Notes: a model not told the origin generated them from the sequence alone. Numbered from the whole stretch's first letter, positions 4,361 through 35,066 are shown. The stretch: 61,606 nucleotides of DNA, filler included, from Nitrospinota bacterium (GCA_030620925.1; 14 parts of 14 records of this genome joined end to end with filler, not necessarily neighbours in it), one strand, 5' to 3'. Numbers and translations: made by a program.

Positions 4361-4819
4361 ATGGGTAAAGTCGAAGACCATGCGGATAGACTCCAGAAAA
4401 CGTTAAAGCATTTCATCCGTAGCCACCAGTTTCGAGACCGCAACGAGATGAGCCCCTTCGGAGTTACTGTTACCCAGTGTTACGCCCTTGACGCTCTGGG
4501 GGACAGCGGCAGCCTGACCATGAGCGAGCTGGCGGAGAAGATGTACCTCACCACTCCAACCATGACCGGCGTGGTGGAGGAACTGGTGAAGAAAGGGTTA
4601 ACGGAAAGAAAGTTCGACCAGCGGGACAGGCGGTTGATCCGTGTGGCCCTGACCCCCAAAGGGCTGGAAGTCTACGACCAGATCAGGGGTACGCTGCTGA
4701 ACAGATACAAGGATATTCTCAGGAGACTCAAACTTTCCGGTAGGGACGTGGACAAGGTCATCAGCGTGCTCAATGTGCTGACCGCTGATCCCGGGGAAAG
4801 TTGCGCCGAGTGTAAATAA
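4361..4819 (+). CDS. MarR-family transcriptional regulator
   Basis: Winged-HTH pattern LTMSELAEKMYLTTPTMTGVVEELVKKGL and DQRDRRLIRVALTPKG; C-terminal CAEC. Confidence 0.9.
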   Translation: MGKVEDHADRLQKTLKHFIRSHQFRDRNEMSPFGVTVTQCYALDALGDSGSLTMSELAEKMYLTTPTMTGVVEELVKKGLTERKFDQRDRRLIRVALTPKGLEVYDQIRGTLLNRYKDILRRLKLSGRDVDKVISVLNVLTADPGESCAECK

Positions 4820-4875
4820 CGCCGCACACAGGGAAGTGGACTTTTTACATACGCCTTTCAGAAGGAGATTAGAAA

Positions 4876-5817
4876 ATGTATGGTGAGTTGTGGATCATAG
4901 CCAAGACGGCCGGTCATATACTGGCCGAATTGTGGTGGTTCGTGGTGTTGGCCATAGTCATCGCCTCGATAATGTCCGCGCTCAAGCTTGATAAGAAGGT
5001 GTCCCTCTACTTTCATCGGGCCAAAGGGTGGGCTATTTTTGGAGCACTGCTTCTGGGTCTGGTCAGCCCCCTGTGAGCCATAGGGGTCCTCCCCGCGGTA
5101 GCGGCCATGCTGGCTGCGGGGGCGCCCATGGCACCCGTGATGGTGTTTCTGATTTCATCGCCGCTCATGAGCCCCAGCGCCTTTTTCATAACCCTGGGCG
5201 GTTTGGGATTAAGTATCGCCCTTTGGAAGCTGGTCTCCGCTGTTATCCTGGGCCTGGCTGCGGGTTGGATGACGGACCGGTTATCCAGACGCGGATATTT
5301 TGGTAATTCCATTCTTCGACTGGAAACCGCCCCGCCTGAGCAGAACCCGCCAACATCATGCTCCGCCTCAGGAAACGAAGTGCAGACCGAAAGCGCGGGA
5401 AGAGTAACCGGCGAGGATATAAAAGCAACGCTCCGCCTCACCTGGAAGTTCAGTGTTTTCATCGGCAAGTTCATCCTCATTGCGGTGGTAGCCCAGGCGG
5501 TGGTGATGCGTTTCGTCCCCCAGGATTGGGTGGTGACCGCCGTGGGCACCAAGAACGCATACGGAGTGCTCTACTCCACCATGATCGGCATTCCCACCTA
5601 TATAAGCAGCATCAGCGCCGTCCCGCTGCTCAGTGGGCTTATGGACCTGGGGATGGACAAGGGCGCTGTGCTTGCGTTCATCATAGCAGGCCCGGTTATG
5701 TCCGTGCCCTCCATACTGGCGGTGATGGCCCTGTTCAGGCGTCGGGCCCTCTACGTCTACATGATGGTGGGATTCATAGGAGCCATCCTTTTTGGATATA
5801 CCTACCGCCTCTTCTGA
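4876..5817 (+). CDS. DUF318/ArsP-type permease with in-frame TGA, predicted selenoprotein (U67, 313 aa)
   Basis: Track ORFs 4876-5076 and 5107-5817 are in the same frame and separated only by TGA 5074-5076. The joined sequence GLVSPL-U-AIGVLP...FLISSPLMSP matches the family motif PxCxCgxxP...FLxxxP. A hairpin follows the TGA. Confidence 0.8.
5076..5115 (+). promoter_or_regulatory. Candidate bacterial SECIS element of the permease
   Basis: Upper stem-loop CCGC-GGTA-GCGG (5093-5104), loop starting 20 nt after the UGA; possible lower stem AGCCA/TGGCT. Confidence 0.5.
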
Positions 5818-27346: not shown

Positions 27347-28162
27347 TTGATCAAAGGCAAGAAGATAGCTTTCATCGGGGCGGGTAATATGGGGCAGGCG
27401 CTGATCCGCGGTATCCTGAGCGCTTCCCTGGTCGATCCGGGAAATATAACCGCCGCCGATACGGATGCCGAGAAGCTGCAGCAGCTCAACAAGGAGTATG
27501 GAATAGCCACCACGCAGGATAACTCCGATGCGGTATCCTCTTCCGAGGTGATCGTCCTCTCGGTAAAGCCGCAGGTTATGGAGTCAGTCTTGCGCGGCGT
27601 CTCCCCTGTAGTCGACGACTCGAAGCTCGTCCTCTCAATAGCTGCAGGGACCACCATAGAATCTATAAAATCGCAACTCAAAAACGGACCCAGGATCATC
27701 AGGATCATGCCGAATACACCCGCCCTGGTGGGGGAAGGCGCGGCGGCACTGGCCCCGGGCGGCAACGCTACTGAAGAAGACGTAAATCTCGCCCTGGAAG
27801 TATTTTCCTCGGTGGGAAGGGCTATAATAGTTGAAGAAAAGATGATGGACGCTATCACGGGGCTCAGCGGCAGCGGCCCGGCCTATGTATTCCTTTTCAT
27901 AGAGGCGCTTTCCGACGGGGGCGTAAAGATGGGGCTGCCCAGGGACGTCTCACTTCTGCTAGCCGCCCAGACGGTCCTGGGAGCGGCTCGCATGGTGCTG
28001 GAATTGGGCAAGCATCCGGGGGAGCTCAAAGACATGGTTACCTCCCCGGGGGGCACCACCATTGAAGGGGTTCACGCCCTGGAGCATGGAGCACTGCGAT
28101 CAATCACCATTGATGCGGTAGAAGCCGCCACGCTGCGCTCGCAGGAATTGGGGAAGGCTTAA
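27347..28162 (+). CDS. proC: Pyrroline-5-carboxylate reductase
   Basis: FIGAGNMG, RIMPNTP, SGSGPAY, VTSPGGTT. Confidence 0.96.
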   Translation: MIKGKKIAFIGAGNMGQALIRGILSASLVDPGNITAADTDAEKLQQLNKEYGIATTQDNSDAVSSSEVIVLSVKPQVMESVLRGVSPVVDDSKLVLSIAAGTTIESIKSQLKNGPRIIRIMPNTPALVGEGAAALAPGGNATEEDVNLALEVFSSVGRAIIVEEKMMDAITGLSGSGPAYVFLFIEALSDGGVKMGLPRDVSLLLAAQTVLGAARMVLELGKHPGELKDMVTSPGGTTIEGVHALEHGALRSITIDAVEAATLRSQELGKA

Positions 28163-28194
28163 AGAAAGGAATACTCCTTAAGAGGGAGACGACA

Positions 28195-28497
28195 TTGTTC
28201 GTCTTGGGCAACTTTATCGGGGCCATCTCCAGCGTTTTGAATTTTGTGCTGACACTGTATATATTTCTCATTATCTGCAGGGCAATAGTATCATGGATTA
28301 ATCTCAACCCATACCACTCGCTGGTAGAGGTTCTGCATAAAATTACCGAACCTGTACTGGCGCCTGTAAGAAGGAGGATAAACTTACGCTTGCCTATAGA
28401 TATATCTCCCATAGTGGTTATAGTAATTATAATTTTTCTTCAGGGTTTCGTAGTCAGTTCACTGAGAGATCTCTCGGAGAGGCTCAGGATTCCCTGA
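28195..28497 (+). CDS. yggT: YggT family membrane protein
   Basis: SW, ITEPVLAPVRR, IDISPIV; conserved position after proC. Confidence 0.9.
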   Translation: MFVLGNFIGAISSVLNFVLTLYIFLIICRAIVSWINLNPYHSLVEVLHKITEPVLAPVRRRINLRLPIDISPIVVIVIIIFLQGFVVSSLRDLSERLRIP

Positions 28498-28578
28498 TGA
28501 ATTGGGCACCAAGTGAGGGGAAAAAACTGGTCAGGGGCGGCCACCACGCACGGCGTAAAAAGGAGCGGAGGTGAAAAA

Positions 28579-29052
28579 ATGAGAATTACTCCCCTGGATT
28601 TCCGGCAGAAAGAGTTTAAAAAGTCTTTCAGTGGTTACAATATGAATGAGGTGCAGGATTTCCTCCTGGAGTTCGCCTCTGAATATGAGAACCTGATCAA
28701 CGAGTTCAATATTATAAAAGAGGAAAAAGAGCAGCTTCTGACGGAACTCAACAACTATCGCGCCTTCGACCAGAAGCTGAAAGAGACCCTGCTTGCCGCT
28801 CAGCAGATGAGCGAAGACCTCAAGGTGGCCGCAGACAGGGAAGCCCAGCTGGTCATAAAGGACGCCAAGCTCCAGGCTGAAGAGATTAATCGCAAAACCC
28901 ACACGACCATTGAAAAGCTGGAGAAAGAAATAGAGGACCTCAAAAGCCTTAAGAAAACTTTCAAGACCCAGCTGACGTCTCTTGTGGAGAGCCATCTGAA
29001 AATGATGGAAAACAGCGCTCCTGAAGAAGTAGAGCAGGAAGAGCGCGAATAA
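28579..29052 (+). CDS. divIVA: DivIVA domain protein
   Basis: MRITPLDFRQKEFKKSFSGYNMNEVQDFL followed by coiled coil; GGAGGT RBS. Confidence 0.88.
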   Translation: MRITPLDFRQKEFKKSFSGYNMNEVQDFLLEFASEYENLINEFNIIKEEKEQLLTELNNYRAFDQKLKETLLAAQQMSEDLKVAADREAQLVIKDAKLQAEEINRKTHTTIEKLEKEIEDLKSLKKTFKTQLTSLVESHLKMMENSAPEEVEQEERE

Positions 29053-29096
29053 TTCCAATCGGCGAAAAAGAACAATTATAGATAGCTCATATATCC

Positions 29097-29393
29097 ATGC
29101 TGGACACGAAGAAGGTTCCGGGAGGGATCAAATTCAGGGTAAGGGTGCAGCCGAGGGCCTCGCGGGCGGAAATATCCCGGGTGGAAGAGGGTGCCCTCAA
29201 GCTTAAGCTCACAGCCCCTCCACTGAAAGGCGCGGCAAATGAGCAGTGCTTGAAACTGCTGTCGAAAGCTCTGGGCGTTAGCAGGTCGGACCTTTCAATA
29301 ACCGGCGGGGATAAATCCCGGAGCAAATGGATAGAAGTTAAAGGCCTGGACGAATCGTCCCTGAAACGATTAATCGCTCGAATAACAGAATAA
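29097..29393 (+). CDS. DUF167 (YggU) family protein
   Basis: [24 protein letters not shown]. Confidence 0.9.
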
Positions 29394-29437
29394 ATACCCC
29401 CCTTATCCATCTTCTCCCGCAACAGCAGGAAGACAAA

Positions 29438-30505
29438 ATGATCAAACCCATACAGTTCCTGGATAGCGGCGTGCTCCTCCTGGATCAGACCAGGCTACCG
29501 GGCGAAGAAGTCTACGTAGATATCAAAGACCACCTGGCAATGGCCGAAGCCATAAAATCCATGGTGGTGCGCGGTGCTCCCGCCATAGGAGTGGCCGCCG
29601 CAGGAGGCATATCCCTTGGCGCCGCCGCAATAAGAGCCGACAGCTTCGAAGCGTTTTACAGTGAGCTGGAAGAAATCTGCGCGATAATGGGGAACACCCG
29701 GCCCACCGCAGTCAACCTTTTCTGGGCCATAGAGCGCATGAAAAGGGTCGCTGCTGAGAACCGCTCGCTGGAAGTGGACAAGATAAAAAAGCTCCTGGAA
29801 GCCGAGGCCAGGCGGATGCTGGAAGAAGACATCCAGCACAATAAAGACATGGGGGCTTTTGGCCAAGGGTTCATCTCGGACGGGGATACCGTTCTCACCC
29901 ACTGCAACGCCGGCGCCCTGGCCACTGCGGGTTTCGGCACCGCCCTGGGGGTGATCAGGGCCGCGCATCTGAAGGGGAAGCGCGTAAAAGTCATAGCCGA
30001 TGAAACGCGCCCGTTCCTCCAGGGAGCCAGGCTCACTGCCTGGGAGCTGGACACGGACGGCATCCAGGTAACCGTCATTTCAGACAACATGGCCGGTTAT
30101 TGCATGAGCAAGGGAATGGTGAACCTGGTTCTCGTAGGGGCGGACAGAATAGCCGCCAACGGGGATGTGGCAAACAAAATCGGAACCTATCCCCTCGCCC
30201 TGCTGGCCAAAGAACACGGCCTCCCTTTTTACGTCGCCGCCCCCACCTCCACGCTCGACCTGTCCACCACCACAGGTGACGATATACCCATCGAAGAGAG
30301 AGACCGAACCGAGATCACCCACTTTCAGGGACAGCTTGTGACTCCCGAAGGCGTCGATGTCTTCAATCCCGCTTTCGACGTAACCCCCAACCATCTGGTG
30401 CACGCCATCATAACCGAAAGGGGCGTGGCCAAAGCGCCCTACGAGAAGAGCCTGCAGAAAATATCGATCGAGGACCGAAAGGAAGCGACCACAAAGAGCA
30501 ACTGA
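29438..30505 (+). CDS. mtnA: S-methyl-5-thioribose-1-phosphate isomerase
   Basis: [45 protein letters not shown]. Confidence 0.95.
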
Positions 30506-30648
30506 TCGCCGGAAGTCTATTCCCCCTGAATCTTATGGACATATGAGACTCCCCCTTGTAAAATAGTCACCATTGGCACCAAATAGACACCAGATGAATA
30601 TAAAAAGGGTAGTCAAACAGACGTGAAGTTTTACTAGTAGCGGAACGT

Positions 30649-30724
30649 GGGCGGGTAACTCAGTGGTTAGAGTGTCGGCCTTACAAGCCGAAAGTCGCAG
30701 GTTCGAATCCTGCTCCGCCCACCA
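30649..30724 (+). tRNA. tRNA-Val (anticodon TAC)
   Basis: 76-nt cloverleaf: GGGCGGG/TCCGCCC acceptor stem, ACTC/GAGT D arm, TCGGC-CTTACAA-GCCGA anticodon arm, GCAGG-TTCGAAT-CCTGC T arm, encoded CCA; not covered by the ORF track. Confidence 0.97.
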
Positions 30725-30972
30725 NNNNNNNNNNNNNNNNNNNNNNNNNNNNNNNNNNNNNNNNNNNNTTAATTAATTAANNNNNNNNNNNNNNNNNNNN
30801 NNNNNNNNNNNNNNNNNNNNNNNNCGCGGGAATAAACACGGATGGAATTTGAGCCTTGGTGCCTTGGTGGTTAAGTATCTATGTTCATCAGCGGAACGTC
30901 ACGCGGCAGGCGTGATGTTCATCCGTGGTTGCATTTAATAAGCTCTGGAGCATGTTAGAATTTGTAGCTGCG

Positions 30973-31001
30973 CTTACATTATACAGGCCGGAAAGTATTA
31001 T
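30973..31001 (+). promoter_or_regulatory. Candidate promoter for the small CU ORF
   Basis: CTTACA-N17-TATTAT in an AT-rich stretch. Confidence 0.35.
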
Positions 31002-31055
31002 ATTAAGATGAACAGGTGTAATAAATACTTGAAAAATGAAGGGAGAATCGGATAG

Positions 31056-31208
31056 ATGAACGAGCAAGAAGAAAGAGAAGTTTATACCGACGAGAAGTTC
31101 GAGCCCTGCTGACCCAGCGTCATGGTCGTTTCCCTGGTGGGGAAACTGTTTATTTTCCTGGGCAAGAAGGTCGGCTCGCTTTTTAAACGGTTGGCTTATT
31201 CCAAGTAG
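31056..31208 (+). CDS. Candidate 50-aa selenoprotein with a CU motif (unknown family)
   Basis: AAGGGAG RBS 10 nt before the ATG. Translation MNEQEEREVYTDEKFEPC-U-PSVMVVSLVGKLFIFLGKKVGSLFKRLAYSK*. TGC-TGA at 31107-31112 is followed by the perfect hairpin GTTTCCC-TGGTG-GGGAAAC. Confidence 0.55.
31128..31146 (+). promoter_or_regulatory. Candidate bacterial SECIS hairpin
   Basis: 7-bp perfect stem starting 15 nt after the UGA, with a GGT-containing apical loop. Confidence 0.55.
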
Positions 31209-31378
31209 GGGCGGGTTTCATTAATACGCCGCGAAGAAAATGTTTTACGTGCTCGGACGATTTCAGGCAAACCGTGGTGTTTATCAATCATAGGGGCAGT
31301 CCCGCGTGTGGCGGGATCAAACCTGCCTTTTATGATAATAGGCATTTTCAAAGGGCGGGTTTTAAACCCGCCCCTACG
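31205..31378 (-). mobile_element. Relic of a REP-associated tyrosine transposase (RAYT, IS200/IS605 Y1 family) between REP palindromes
   Basis: Minus strand 31291-31217 encodes MIDKHHGLPEIVRARKTFSSRRINE, matching the RAYT segment LxEIVRxFKxFSxRRIN; flanked by GGGCGGGTTT(T)AAACCCGCCCCTAC-type REPs. Confidence 0.65.
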
Positions 31379-31454
31379 AGAGCCAACGGTTTCGTCAAGT
31401 CCTGTAGTCCCGCGATGCGCGGGATTACCACCCATGACGTATCAACCATATCCA

Positions 31455-32477
31455 CTATGGTTTCCTGGCCCATACCATCCCAAATTGTTCGGGAATTAAT
31501 TCCCTGGAGCCCTGCACCTGGAAGCCGGCTCCGGCAAGGTAATCAGAGACCTCTGCTATAGAATGGGTGCGTGCATCATCGGAGTAAAATTTCTGAATCA
31601 GGGCGTATAGTGATGGAATAAGTGGGCCACTGCGATCATCATTGAGCATCTGGTCTATGACGATCATTCCTCCGCCGGAAGGAAGAGCGTCAAAAGCTTT
31701 CTTGAATAGTTGTTTTGCCTTATCAGAGCCGTATGCGTGCATGTTGCCCGCATTGAGGATTACGTCCGCTCCTTCAGGGAAGGTGTCTTTATGTAAATCA
31801 CCGTCATAGGTTGAGATGCGGTCGCTCAATCCCTCCTTCTCAATGAATTCCCCGGCCACTTCGGTAACCAAAGGAAAATCGAACACGATGGCTTTGAGGT
31901 CAGGATACTTCTGAGCAGCAGCGATGCAGTATGCGCCTGAGCCGCCGCCCAGGTCGAGTAGCAGCGAATGGTGTGAGAAATCGTAGAGCTTGGCCAGCAA
32001 CCTCCCAACCGCGATGGAGCCGGTGTATCCCGCTTCGGTTAGAGCTCTGGCCTCCTTGGGGTCAGAGGAAAAATGATAGTACATACCCTCGATGTCTGAG
32101 CGGACCTTTCCTCTGAAGATGTCTGTAAGCTCACCCGCCATAGAATAAGCTTTGTTGAACACGTCTATGAGATAGTCACCGAAATAGCTTGGCTTACCCT
32201 TTACCATATACTTTTCCGTCTCCTCGGTGTTCCTGAACAGATTTCCATCCCTCTCCACCAGGTCAAGCGCCAGACAGCAGGTCATTAAATCCTCCGCTCC
32301 ATTCTCCGTTATTCCCATGCGTTTGGTAATATCCGATAAATTGGCCGGTTCCTTTGATAATTCCGTGAACAGTTCAAATTCCAATGCCGCTTTCAGCACC
32401 GCTGATAAATAAAAGCCGTGACCGATCTCGTTTAACCTCCTGGTATCAACTCTGCGTTCACTTGTTTTTTCACTCAT
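31455..32477 (-). CDS. SAM-dependent methyltransferase (O-methyltransferase family 2, with dimerisation domain)
   Basis: LLDLGGGSG, FDFP, GDL, N-terminal LKAALEFELF dimerisation helix. Confidence 0.9.
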   Translation of the reverse strand: MSEKTSERRVDTRRLNEIGHGFYLSAVLKAALEFELFTELSKEPANLSDITKRMGITENGAEDLMTCCLALDLVERDGNLFRNTEETEKYMVKGKPSYFGDYLIDVFNKAYSMAGELTDIFRGKVRSDIEGMYYHFSSDPKEARALTEAGYTGSIAVGRLLAKLYDFSHHSLLLDLGGGSGAYCIAAAQKYPDLKAIVFDFPLVTEVAGEFIEKEGLSDRISTYDGDLHKDTFPEGADVILNAGNMHAYGSDKAKQLFKKAFDALPSGGGMIVIDQMLNDDRSGPLIPSLYALIQKFYSDDARTHSIAEVSDYLAGAGFQVQGSRELIPEQFGMVWARKP

Positions 32478-32675
32478 GATTTCCCCCCTCTTCAGGTCGG
32501 TTCAAGATCTTTATAGCTAATCAGTTGAGCGAAATTATAAACCCATGTTTTTTAATGTCAAGTCGTAAAAAAGTCGATTTTACCCTTCGGTGAATGACGC
32601 TATGAAGTGGGTCGTTCAACTGCCGAAGAGTTCGCCCATGCGGATAAGGAGGTTTACGCCTCCATTATGGAATTG

Positions 32676-33170
32676 TTAATCCACCAGTATCGAGAGTATG
32701 TCTTCTACAGAGGGGCGTTCTCTGTAATTGCGGCCTTTGAAAACCCATTTGATGATGCCTTGATCGTCCATGAGGATGGTGGCGGGGACGGCGACTACGC
32801 CCACGGGCGAGTTCTGGTCGACCAGGTCGAACTGTTCTATAACTGTTTTTTCCGTGTCACTGAGTAGTTGGAGGGGAAATTCTTCTGCGCCGGGCACTCT
32901 GTGCAGTATTCTCTTCTCGAACTGTAGGGAGTATTCGGGCATGTCCACGCTGAGACCCACTGCCTGAACCCCTGCGTCTTTCAGGCGCGTATACTCTGAA
33001 CAGATGGCCGCAAACTGTGACCTGCAGAAAGGTCACCAGTGGCCGCGGTAGAATACGAGCGCGGTGTACGGGGCCTGTTTCAGAAGGTCTGAGAAGAGGA
33101 CTTCTTCGTCTTTCTGGTTGGGGAGCTTAAAATCGGGGAACGTTGCGCCCGTTTCTATATCTGGGTGCAT
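32676..33170 (-). CDS. AhpC/TSA peroxiredoxin-like protein with UxxC motif, predicted selenoprotein (U46, 164 aa)
   Basis: ATG at 33170 after GAGGGGG. MHPDIETGATFPDFKLPNQ...LVFYRGHW-U-PFCRSQ reads through TGA 33035-33033 into track ORF 32676-32960 (GLSVD, LLSD, PATILMD). Confidence 0.9.
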
Positions 33171-33375
33171 TTATTTAACCCCCTCAAGGTCATGATTCAC
33201 GATGCATGATTATTTGTAGGGGCAGTCCCGCGTGCCGCGGGATCGCTATATTTCGCACCTGGAAGGCGCTCCTACAAAATCAGAGAGCACCAGGGGTAAC
33301 CCAAGGGTTGCCCATACAGATTATATTCTATAACGCATTGTTCCGGAGGCACATATTCGTGCATAGTGGCTCGTG

Positions 33376-34557
33376 TTAGATAACTCCTTCTGAATTGAGG
33401 TCTTTGATCTGTTGGTCGTTGTAGCCGAGCCCCTTGAGCATTTCTTCGGTGTGCTGGCCGAAGGTAGGTGAGGGGGTGACGGCTTCGCCGGGGGTATCGG
33501 AAAATTTCACCGGAAACCCTATCTGGGGGACGCTGCCCTCTACAGGGTGGTCTATGGTGAAGAACATCTCGCGGGTGTTTTTAAGCTGGTCGTCCTCCAT
33601 CATTTCGTCAATTTCCAGTACGGGGCCGAAACATACGTCCCACTCGGACATGAGGTCCACCCATTCCTGGCGCGTTTTGGTCTGGAAAATGCTGTCCAGC
33701 TCGGCCCTGACCTCTTCCCCTTTTTCTCCCGCCGCGAACTGGAGTTCCAGGAGGTCTTCGCGTTCCAACGCCTTGCAGAAGTTGGTCCAGAACTTATCTT
33801 CGAGATTGCCGGAGGCCACGAACTTGTCGTCCTTGGTTTTATAGATTCCGTAGCAGGGCGCGGTTCCTGCCAGGGGCAGGGTGCGGATGCCGGGGTTCAT
33901 TTTATTGGAGATGTAGTTGGCCATGGGCAGCACGCAGAAAGCGGCCATGCAGTCGGTCATGGAGACGTCCACCTGCTGCCCCTTACCCGTGCGGTCTCTG
34001 GCCAGCAGGGCCGCCAGGACGCCGAAGGCGGGGAAGACGCCTCCGCCCGCCATGTCGGCGATGGGGATGCCGGGGATTATTGGCCTGTCGGTGTGCCGTC
34101 CGGTAACGCCCAGGATGCCGCCGTAGCCGATGTAGTTTATGTCGTGCCCCGCTTTTTGGACGTAGGGGCCGTCCTTGCCGTAGCCGGTGCCGGAGACGTA
34201 TATGATGCGGGGGTTGATCTCGCTCAGGGATTCGTAGCTCAGGCCCAGGCGGTCCATGACGCCGGGGCGGAAGGTCTCGAAAACCACGTCGTATTCTTTC
34301 ACCATGTCCCGGAAAATCTCTTTCCCTTTTTCCGATTTGAGGTTGAGCTTCATGCTCTTCTTGTTGCGGTTGCAGATCAGGAAGGCCACGGCCTCTTCTT
34401 TGTATTTGGGGCCCAGGGTGCGGCCGTAGTCCCCCAGGGTGGGTTCTTCTATTTTGAGCACCTCGGCTCCCAGGTCCGCAAGCAGCAGTGTGGCGAACTG
34501 ATAGGGAACCAGTCTCCCCAGGTCGAGAATTTTAACCCCTTCCAGCGCTCTGGCCAT
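33376..34557 (-). CDS. CaiB/BaiF family III CoA-transferase
   Basis: LEGVKILDL, LADLGAEVLKIE, NRNKKS, FRPGVMDRLGL, AGHDINY. Confidence 0.93.
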   Translation of the reverse strand: MARALEGVKILDLGRLVPYQFATLLLADLGAEVLKIEEPTLGDYGRTLGPKYKEEAVAFLICNRNKKSMKLNLKSEKGKEIFRDMVKEYDVVFETFRPGVMDRLGLSYESLSEINPRIIYVSGTGYGKDGPYVQKAGHDINYIGYGGILGVTGRHTDRPIIPGIPIADMAGGGVFPAFGVLAALLARDRTGKGQQVDVSMTDCMAAFCVLPMANYISNKMNPGIRTLPLAGTAPCYGIYKTKDDKFVASGNLEDKFWTNFCKALEREDLLELQFAAGEKGEEVRAELDSIFQTKTRQEWVDLMSEWDVCFGPVLEIDEMMEDDQLKNTREMFFTIDHPVEGSVPQIGFPVKFSDTPGEAVTPSPTFGQHTEEMLKGLGYNDQQIKDLNSEGVI

Positions 34558-34582
34558 AAGTCTATCCTCCTCAAGTGAAAGC

Positions 34583-34661
34583 AACCACAGATGAGCACAG
34601 ATGAACACAGATAAACCCGGATTGCAGATAAATTAATTATCAGTGTTCATCTGTGGTTCCA
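34583..34661. repeat. CACAGAT-unit direct/inverted repeat element
   Basis: AACCACAGATGAGCACAGATGAACACAGAT ... ATCAGTGTTCATCTGTGGTT; degenerate relative at 30831-30930. Confidence 0.7.
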
Positions 34662-34806
34662 TTAGGGGGAATATACTAAACGGCTGAAGGAAGTTCAACA
34701 GGACTTTGCGCGGGATGCAAGAAACATGATGCAGGGTCTTTCTGCAGGCGCGACTAGTCGCGGCGGGTTTTACCGCGATCCAATAGGAAACCTCGTTCCT
34801 ACTCGA

Positions 34807-35066
34807 CTGTCATTCTGAGCGAAGCGAAGAATCTCGCGTATCTTAGCTATCCGGTTTTTTTCCCGGAAACACGCCAGGCTCTGCCTTCCGTTGGAGGGGA
34901 AAGGGGGGAGGACAGGCGAAGACGCCCGGAAACATAAGGGTGCTGCAAAGACAGGCGAGATTCTTCACTTCGTCCCGAGGAAGGCGGGACTCCGTTCAGA
35001 ATGACAGGATGCGGAGTGGTGCGTAGGGGCGTCCCGCGGCACGCGGGCCCTCGCCTGGGCAGGCAC
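34807..35066. repeat. Inverted pair of GTCATTCTGA..GAAGAATCTC elements plus REP
   Basis: GTCATTCTGAGCGAAGCGAAGAATCTC (34809-34835) and a reverse copy GAGATTCTTC...TCAGAATGAC (about 34957-35005); other copies at about 219-269, 3795-3833 and 17674-17735. Confidence 0.8.

Follow-up and report, generated by a model that had tools for sequence, protein, structure and literature searches.

The recorded bacterial selenoprotein families number more than 100 (BSepDB), and those in which a Cys directly precedes the selenocysteine (Sec, U), the CU-motif selenoproteins, include the Csac_0668-type 2Fe-2S protein, SaoL, SaoC (Cys-Cys-COOH), SaoB (CUxxT) and KCU-star (PMC13188914). The same paper lists a selenobacteriocin family and mentions a selenoprotein called 'putative mercuric transport protein'. 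It also models the bacterial selenocysteine insertion sequence (bSECIS) as a hairpin with a loop of 3-9 nucleotides (nt), an upper stem of 4-16 base pairs (bp), a UGA-to-loop distance of 16-37 nt and a minimum free energy (MFE) of <=-7.5 kcal/mol, the loop carrying a G in its first two positions and mostly reading N1-G-[G/U]-N-N2, with N1 pairing with N2 (PMC13188914). Current selenoprotein discovery relies on Cys-containing homologs or on open reading frames (ORFs) of about 200 nt at minimum (BSepDB uses 200 nt), and a gene of 153 nt with no Cys relatives therefore lies outside both discovery nets. Here we describe a small ORF of this kind at 31056-31208 (+) in a stretch of 61,606 nt from Nitrospinota bacterium (GCA_030620925.1), which is referred to at its full length as the window, and we consider it likely that this ORF is a genuine gene, probably monocistronic, and that it encodes a 50-residue selenoprotein from a family not yet described. 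The selenoprotein reading is the most likely one because the in-frame TGA, the hairpin behind it and the flanking protein sequence are all conserved in a related sediment bacterium.

The elements of the small ORF are the following, with positions counted from the first letter of the window and G001 denoting the genome of this related bacterium.

30973-31001 (+): promoter-like site CTTACA, 17 nt, TATTAT; 9/12 match, a weak candidate
31041-31045 (+): Shine-Dalgarno core GGGAG, 10 nt upstream of the ATG
31056-31208 (+): proposed micro-selenoprotein gene, 153 nt; 50-codon ORF plus TAG stop, TGA at codon 19
31107-31112 (+): TGC-TGA (TGC at 31107-31109), the putative Cys18-Sec19, within a conserved E-P-C-U-P-S that is identical in G001
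31113-31205 (+): post-UGA coding part, residues 20-50; predicted single long helix, hydrophobic then Lys/Arg-rich
31128-31146 (+): bSECIS-like hairpin GTTTCCC-TGGTG-GGGAAAC, 7-bp stem plus a U.G closing pair, GGU triloop

The ORF opens with the ATG at 31056, runs through 18 codons ending in TGC to the TGA at 31110-31112, and continues with 31 open codons to the TAG at 31206-31208, so that reading through the TGA gives the peptide MNEQEEREVYTDEKFEPCUPSVMVVSLVGKLFIFLGKKVGSLFKRLAYSK. A first-pass annotation, made from the sequence alone, had proposed this start, the ribosome-binding site with its GGGAG core, the TGC-TGA and the 31 further codons, together with a perfect 7-bp hairpin beginning 15 nt past the TGA, and each of these was recovered in its place, the two hairpin arms being GTTTCCC (31128-31134) and GGGAAAC (31140-31146). 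The candidate promoter of the same annotation stood in part: the site is present as listed above, and the abundance of promoter-like sites in the region, with two found against 1.1 expected, is at chance level.

The evidence that carries the selenoprotein reading comes from G001, a metagenome-assembled genome (MAG) labelled 'uncultured Nitrospinota bacterium', which was reached via the CoA-transferase encoded near the small ORF: among 246 relatives of this enzyme in species-representative genomes, one, that of G001, is 82% identical, with no more than 51% identity for the runner-up. When G001 was searched in six frames with the 50-residue peptide, one match was returned (E 1.4e-13, 59% identity over residues 1-49, one internal TGA), and a two-sequence profile applied as a control to 32 other genomes holding CoA-transferase relatives gave a best E value of 0.039. 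When aligned, the two small ORFs share 62% identity without an indel over 50 codons, residues 16-31 are invariant, and Cys-TGA is kept at codons 18-19. The first-pass annotation had proposed looking for homologs with TGA or Cys at position 19, and the G001 homolog has the TGA at this very codon, with conservation on both sides of it. In the window as in G001, the ATG is the first in-frame start past the upstream stop and lies exactly 18 codons before the TGA; the Shine-Dalgarno sequence of G001, GAGGT, sits 7 nt before the ATG, and the G001 ORF closes with a TGA stop seven codons beyond the stop of the window. Upstream of the ORF, merely a short AT-rich block at about 31021-31039 aligns to G001, and weakly.

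The hairpin, which is single copy in the window, has all four properties of the bSECIS model in both genomes, with a stem of 7-8 bp, the loop 22-23 nt past the UGA and an MFE of -9.2 kcal/mol. Its stem is unchanged in G001, and its sole difference lies in the loop, which reads UGGUG in the window and UGGUA in G001, so that the N1:N2 pair shifts from U.G to U-A and the closing pair is retained; the conservation of the hairpin in a homolog, the lack of which the first-pass annotation had named as a refutation, was thus found. The G001 selD gene, itself with an in-frame TGA, served as a positive control and shows a 7-bp stem, a GGAC loop and a spacing of 20 nt.

Furthermore, the small ORF carries a coding signature in the comparison of window and G001. 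For the whole ORF in the proposed frame, synonymous divergence (pS) is 0.55 and nonsynonymous divergence (pN) 0.24, giving a ratio of 0.44, below those of the five other frames, which range from 0.77 to 1.08; the post-TGA part has a pS of 0.50 and a pN of 0.16, and the synonymous excess is significant for the whole ORF (P 0.0048) and for the post-TGA part (P 0.0078). Two neighbouring genes calibrate these values, namely the CoA-transferase (pS 0.56, pN 0.10) and the AhpC-like gene (pS 0.67, pN 0.24, 62% identity). By blastn, 31094-31169 alone aligns between the two genomes (85.5%), with no alignment of the intergenic DNA on either side. Divergence values like those of the neighbours, together with unalignable flanks, indicate that the small ORF evolves as a protein-coding gene and is constrained like its AhpC-like neighbour.

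Strain variants were available as contigs covering the ORF from four runs (X1-X4) of four studies, marine or marine-sediment metagenomes where labelled; the variants of X1 and X4 come from a part of their differences and are lower bounds. X2 (30888-31177) shows four differences in all, two of them in the ORF, namely the synonymous 31121 C>A in Val22 and the replacement V24A through 31126 T>C, and X3 (30916-31125) shows three in all; the Cys-TGA codons are unchanged in both. Among the differences listed for X1 are synonymous changes at 31178 and 31184 and the conservative replacements V25I, L42F, K44R and K50R. Position 31121, the third base of the Val22 codon, has three states that all encode Val: the window has C, G001 has T and the four runs have A. 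None of the other eight bases that separate the TGA from the next ATG varies. Such wobble-only variation argues for translation of the TGA-ATG interval, i.e., for read-through rather than re-initiation.

The same contigs bear on the C-terminus, which the first-pass annotation had called into doubt, given that the TAG stop overlaps the left arm, GTAGGGGCGGGTTT, of a repeat unit with a perfect inverted partner at 31364-31377. In X1 and X2 the ORF ends at the same codon, with TGA as the stop and with different Arg codons at residues 44-45, and X1 lacks an intact repeat arm. A stop at the same codon in strains without the exact arm indicates that the C-terminus at residue 50 is no artefact of repeat insertion, which largely answers the doubt.

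In addition, genes of the Sec trait are found in the relative. In G001, selA (614 bits) lies next to selB (393 bits), both above curated cut-offs, and its selD with the in-frame TGA scores 213 bits, above the curated cut-off as well. The AhpC-like ORF on the contig of the small ORF, which the first-pass annotation had singled out for its UxxC motif, does contain an in-frame TGA (U46 in WUPFC), and this TGA is conserved at the same position in G001 (L086 318-830, -); the gene is therefore evidence for UGA decoding as Sec in this organism. At the same time, TGA terminates 9 of the 16 long ORFs in the window, which marks it as a normal stop and not a reassigned sense codon. Moreover, MAGs labelled Nitrospinota (GTDB UBA8248) are among the ten bacteria richest in selenoprotein genes (BSepDB). 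Together, a homolog exists, its homology runs on beyond the TGA, the hairpin is conserved and the relative carries selA, selB and a selD with an in-frame TGA, all of which supports the earlier reading of the site. The two best matches to the tRNA-Sec model RF01852 in G001, at G001:C18:15161-15237 and G001:C436:758-846, were identified by ARAGORN as tRNA-Trp(cca) and tRNA-Ser(tga) and were rejected as false positives of the model; one of these two is barely above the gathering score (47.4 vs 47 bits), and the other four matches are 75-81 nt long.

Regarding the protein, AlphaFold, run on a two-row alignment, leaves residues 1-19 disordered and places residues 20-49 in a single helix, with a mean predicted local distance difference test (pLDDT) score of 69.7 and about 84 over residues 21-40. 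The best Kyte-Doolittle 19-residue window comprises residues 18-36 (1.96 in the window, 1.76 in G001), and the post-UGA part has a net charge of +6 to +7. The predicted helix and the Kyte-Doolittle maxima are consistent with membrane association, and the Cys-Sec pair probably stands at the start of a membrane-binding helix, the conserved protein core being E-P-C-U-P-S followed by this helix.

We propose that translation would start at the ATG at 31056 behind the GGGAG core and that the ribosome would reach the UGA at 31110 after 18 codons. The hairpin at 31128-31146, with its GGU triloop and an 8-pair stem 22-23 nt downstream, would recruit SelB with Sec-tRNA(Sec), selenocysteine would be inserted beside Cys18, and 31 more codons would then be translated. 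The product would consist of a short, disordered and poorly conserved N-terminal tail, Pro-Cys-Sec-Pro and helix 20-49, which begins with a hydrophobic half and ends with a Lys/Arg-rich one. This helix, spanning or lying on the cytoplasmic membrane, would place the vicinal Cys-Sec at the membrane interface, where the pair could cycle between a selenenylsulfide and the thiol/selenol form as a redox relay or bind a soft metal(loid). Actual Sec insertion, the membrane location and the chemistry are what we infer from these features. Provided that the protein is real, a redox relay is our first, still tentative, choice for its chemistry, metal(loid) binding ranks next as a possible role, and some other chemistry is rather unlikely.

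The family was sought broadly. A word-indexed search of 5.8 billion predicted proteins, with the single sequence and with the two-row alignment, found nothing at near lengths, and at longer lengths the same set yielded 205 candidates, none of them at E<=1. HMMER over 1.84 billion representative proteins gave 0 matches. Neither the peptide search of Joint Genome Institute (JGI) metagenome contigs (595 pattern matches) nor that of viral contigs (87 pattern matches) produced a confirmed match. The first-pass annotation had described the protein as invisible to standard gene callers and as belonging to a family it did not recognise; the blank searches of both predicted-protein sets bear out the former, and the latter holds in that no Pfam or NCBIfam family scored above threshold. 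In Pfam, 0 families matched at E<=0.01, MerT/MerF-type families included, and at E<=10 the sole match was Cupiennin, a spider antimicrobial peptide (residues 29-39, E 0.056, 14.1 bits vs a cut-off of 27), which was absent for the G001 protein. NCBIfam gave 0 families for either peptide at E<=10, including KCU-star NF033934, SaoC NF040734, SaoL NF040728, SaoB NF040727 and TIGR04081. In the accessible text of PMC13188914, PMC12013277 and PMC13326102 no family of this description appears, and the supplementary lists of deep-Sep/BSepDB might include a related entry.

A number of observations weigh against the selenoprotein reading. Almost every selenoprotein has homologs that contain Cys (PMC13188914), and none was found for the small ORF in the protein, JGI metagenome or viral contig searches. 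Of the Sec genes that the first-pass annotation had proposed to confirm in the genome, selA, selB and selD were seen in the relative G001; tRNA-Sec was not recovered there by the RF01852 search (six matches, the two best checked by ARAGORN), and no sel genes were seen among the 52 other long ORFs scanned on the other contigs of the window. For the hairpin, 22 of the 1827 TGA triplets in the window (1.2%) precede a perfect hairpin of at least 7 bp with bSECIS geometry, the fold of the 71-nt stretch is ordinary (z -0.45, with 62 of 200 shuffles at least as stable), and the hairpin followed by TGTTTATTTT (31128-31156, +) matches, in the window, the simple pattern of an intrinsic terminator. A perfect-stem scan, in which no bulges were allowed, gave no canonical bSECIS for the AhpC-like gene, be it in the window or in G001. 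The pre-TGA part taken alone (pS 0.70, pN 0.39, P 0.2) has no significant coding signature, and the acidic N-terminus is not conserved, its net charge being -5 in the window and 0 in G001. The tail, which had been described as hydrophobic then basic and amphipathic-looking, is indeed hydrophobic then basic, and its amphipathic character lacks statistical support, with a hydrophobic moment reached by 7-25% of shuffles. Finally, the homologs amount to two diverged sequences plus close strain variants, so that a stem covariation test is impossible.

Several of these points can be placed. With a chance rate of 1.2% and an ordinary fold, the hairpin alone is weak evidence, and the weight therefore rests on its conservation. 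The T run behind it in the window corresponds to Leu-Phe-Ile-Phe codons and is absent in G001, where the hairpin is not flagged as a terminator. The case for translation before the TGA is made by the open frame and by conservation of the ATG, of the Shine-Dalgarno sequence and of the length, and not by substitutions. The element of the AhpC-like gene may be atypical; a subset of selenoprotein genes fails the bSECIS model (PMC13188914).

Two of the alternative explanations retain a translated product or a conserved transcript and dispense with Sec. The site might hold two short cistrons, in which the UGA is the true stop of an 18-residue peptide, a 28-residue basic hydrophobic peptide starts from the ATG at 31122 (Met23), and the hairpin is unrelated to Sec. 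An in-frame ATG does lie 9 nt past the TGA in the window and in G001, the significant coding signature is confined to the post-TGA part (P 0.0078 vs 0.2 before), and neither a Cys homolog nor tRNA-Sec was found. However, no Shine-Dalgarno-like sequence stands ahead of this ATG, the three codons from TGA to ATG are conserved with change at the Val22 wobble position alone, and E-P-C, the TGA, the place of the upstream ATG and the Shine-Dalgarno sequence ahead of it are invariant; the lineage, moreover, uses Sec, and the hairpin has all the bSECIS properties and lies at the canonical distance. We regard two cistrons as very unlikely. A conserved non-coding RNA with an incidental ORF, be it a small RNA or, following a short leader peptide, an intrinsic terminator or an attenuator, is to our estimate the least probable alternative. 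Its T run is lost in G001, differences past the hairpin fall mainly at synonymous sites of one frame, and no Rfam family matches at the site, although hairpin and TGTTTATTTT do look terminator-like in the window and nucleotide conservation is highest precisely over the TGA and the hairpin (85.5%, 31094-31169). Since no same-strand gene follows the small ORF in the window contig or in G001, there is also nothing for an attenuator to act on.

That the ORF is a chance one without function, similar in the two genomes by shared ancestry, would suit a family from one narrow clade alone for which broad searches are all blank. Against this, synonymous divergence in the neighbours is near saturation (0.56-0.67) and intergenic DNA is unalignable, yet the ORF, at a pN/pS of 0.44, has retained 62% identity with no indel and stays intact throughout, in surroundings that are rearranged as regards the methyltransferase, the repeats and the extra sequence in X1; we give this explanation as little credence as that of two cistrons. 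A further alternative accepts the gene and Sec insertion and differs in function, the product being a bacteriocin- or toxin-like membrane-active peptide whose N-terminal tail would act as leader and whose cationic helix would be the active part. We hold it to be unlikely: conservation is lacking for the acidic, leader-like tail, neither TIGR04081 nor another NCBIfam model was matched, and no processing, export or immunity genes are visible, though both contigs end just upstream. The charge of +6 to +7 on a hydrophobic helix gives it compositional support, and the selenobacteriocin family puts Sec peptides of that kind on record (PMC13188914); the match to Cupiennin at residues 29-39 also points this way, but it falls short of the threshold and has no counterpart for the G001 protein. 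Overall, a selenoprotein gene with read-through of the UGA accounts best for the locus, and on the broader proposition, that it is the founding member of micro-selenoproteins of at most 60 residues without Cys-only relatives, obligately Sec-dependent, with a vicinal Cys-Sec heading a single membrane-binding helix and a product serving as membrane-surface selenenylsulfide relay or soft-metal(loid) handler, we see about equal grounds for and against.

The setting of the small ORF is a short contig. The window joins 14 short contigs of one fragmented assembly, with 26 runs of 44 N flanking 13 TTAATTAATTAA linkers (N44-TTAATTAATTAA-N44), and the following features belong to this context.

6936-58481: 13 linkers spread over this part of the window, e.g., 30725-30824
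30825-35066: contig with the small ORF, 4.2 kb
31205-31377 (no strand): repeat unit adjoining the small ORF, with perfect 14-nt inverted arms GTAGGGGCGGGTTT / AAACCCGCCCCTAC; context rather than gene
31205-31377, 31291-31318, 31406-31425, 33217-33244 and elsewhere in the window: dispersed repeats
31455-32477 (-): O-methyltransferase, downstream of the small ORF on the opposite strand
32676-33170 (-): AhpC/TSA-like ORF of the thioredoxin fold with in-frame TGA (U46, WUPFC); AhpC-TSA match 8.2e-25
33376-34608 (-): family III CoA-transferase, downstream of the small ORF on the opposite strand

Linkers separate contigs that are not neighbours, and sequence left of 30825 is therefore no true neighbour of the small ORF; this applies to a tRNA-Val (30649-30724) and an IF-2B family gene (29438-30505), which lie across the linker. 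In an Rfam scan of 28000-35000 the tRNA-Val alone was above threshold, with no family at the small-ORF site, and a Pfam scan of the 4.2-kb contig found no mer or ars genes. On the upstream side of the small ORF a contig end is close by in both genomes: the contig in the window begins within a repeat (CGCGGGA at 30825), the contigs of the four runs X1-X4 break just upstream of the small ORF too, and in G001 the small ORF is 46 nt from the contig end. GTAGGGGCGGGTTT occurs in 13 copies in the window vs 0.5 expected, and a second dispersed repeat, the palindromic AGTCCCGCG-NNN-CGCGGGAT, in 11 copies vs 0.03 expected; the two dispersed repeat families are probably the cause of the fragmented assembly.

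In the window, the AhpC-like gene and the small ORF are separated by the methyltransferase and repeats, which are absent from this place in G001, where the small ORF is convergent with the AhpC-like gene and no methyltransferase stands between them; the best G001 methyltransferase elsewhere, a paralog, is 46% identical. In X1, the stretch from the methyltransferase to the AhpC-like gene is longer by about 1.1 kb. A search for orthologous loci via the methyltransferase found none in genome contigs, and one 1325-nt JGI contig ends inside the gene, short of the small ORF. On these alignments the locus is structurally plastic around an intact small ORF. On other contigs of the window we noted four acyl-CoA dehydrogenase paralogs (409, 386, 386 and 385 aa) in tandem on one contig (51975-56890, +), preceded by a 4Fe-4S ferredoxin-domain protein and with an amidohydrolase after them, as well as a MarR-family regulator followed by an ArsP_1-type predicted permease (4361-5817, +).

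If the selenoprotein reading is true, the small ORF would represent a new family whose sole conserved chemistry is a Pro-Cys-Sec-Pro site beside a membrane helix. It would also provide a minimal natural UGA-plus-bSECIS cassette of about 40 nt from an uncultured lineage, useful for recoding studies. Furthermore, the selenoproteomes of selenium-rich sediment bacteria would be undercounted at their small-protein end, and, should the broader proposition hold, selenoprotein-rich sediment lineages may hide many more such micro-selenoproteins that are missed by gene callers and selenoprotein pipelines alike.

Compared with known systems, the recoding mechanism is the standard bacterial one, and the size of the gene and the absence of Cys relatives are unusual. 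The selD gene of G001 resembles the small ORF in having an in-frame UGA and, 20-23 nt on, a 7-bp hairpin's loop whose first positions carry G, and it likewise agrees with the published bSECIS model; it differs in encoding a 300-residue enzyme with many Cys-containing homologs, whereas the small ORF is known from one clade. The known bacterial CU-motif families are likewise short, with the Cys directly before the Sec, and Sec is proposed there as a metal(loid) or substrate ligand. In these families the CU presumably stands at the extreme C-terminus, as we take from their names; in the small ORF, by contrast, it is internal, occupying residues 18-19 of 50, with a 30-residue helix behind it. In animal thioredoxin reductase, with its C-terminal Gly-Cys-Sec-Gly, the adjacent Cys and Sec form an electron-shuttling selenenylsulfide, which is a chemical precedent for a CU redox site, although that protein is a large flavoenzyme with a eukaryotic SECIS element in the 3' untranslated region and without sequence relation to the small ORF. 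The mercury transporters MerT and MerF bear vicinal Cys pairs at the edges of membrane helices. They differ from the small protein in being multi-helix proteins and share with it adjacent soft-ligand residues at the start of a hydrophobic helix, an arrangement that would suit the passing of Hg or other thiophilic ions.

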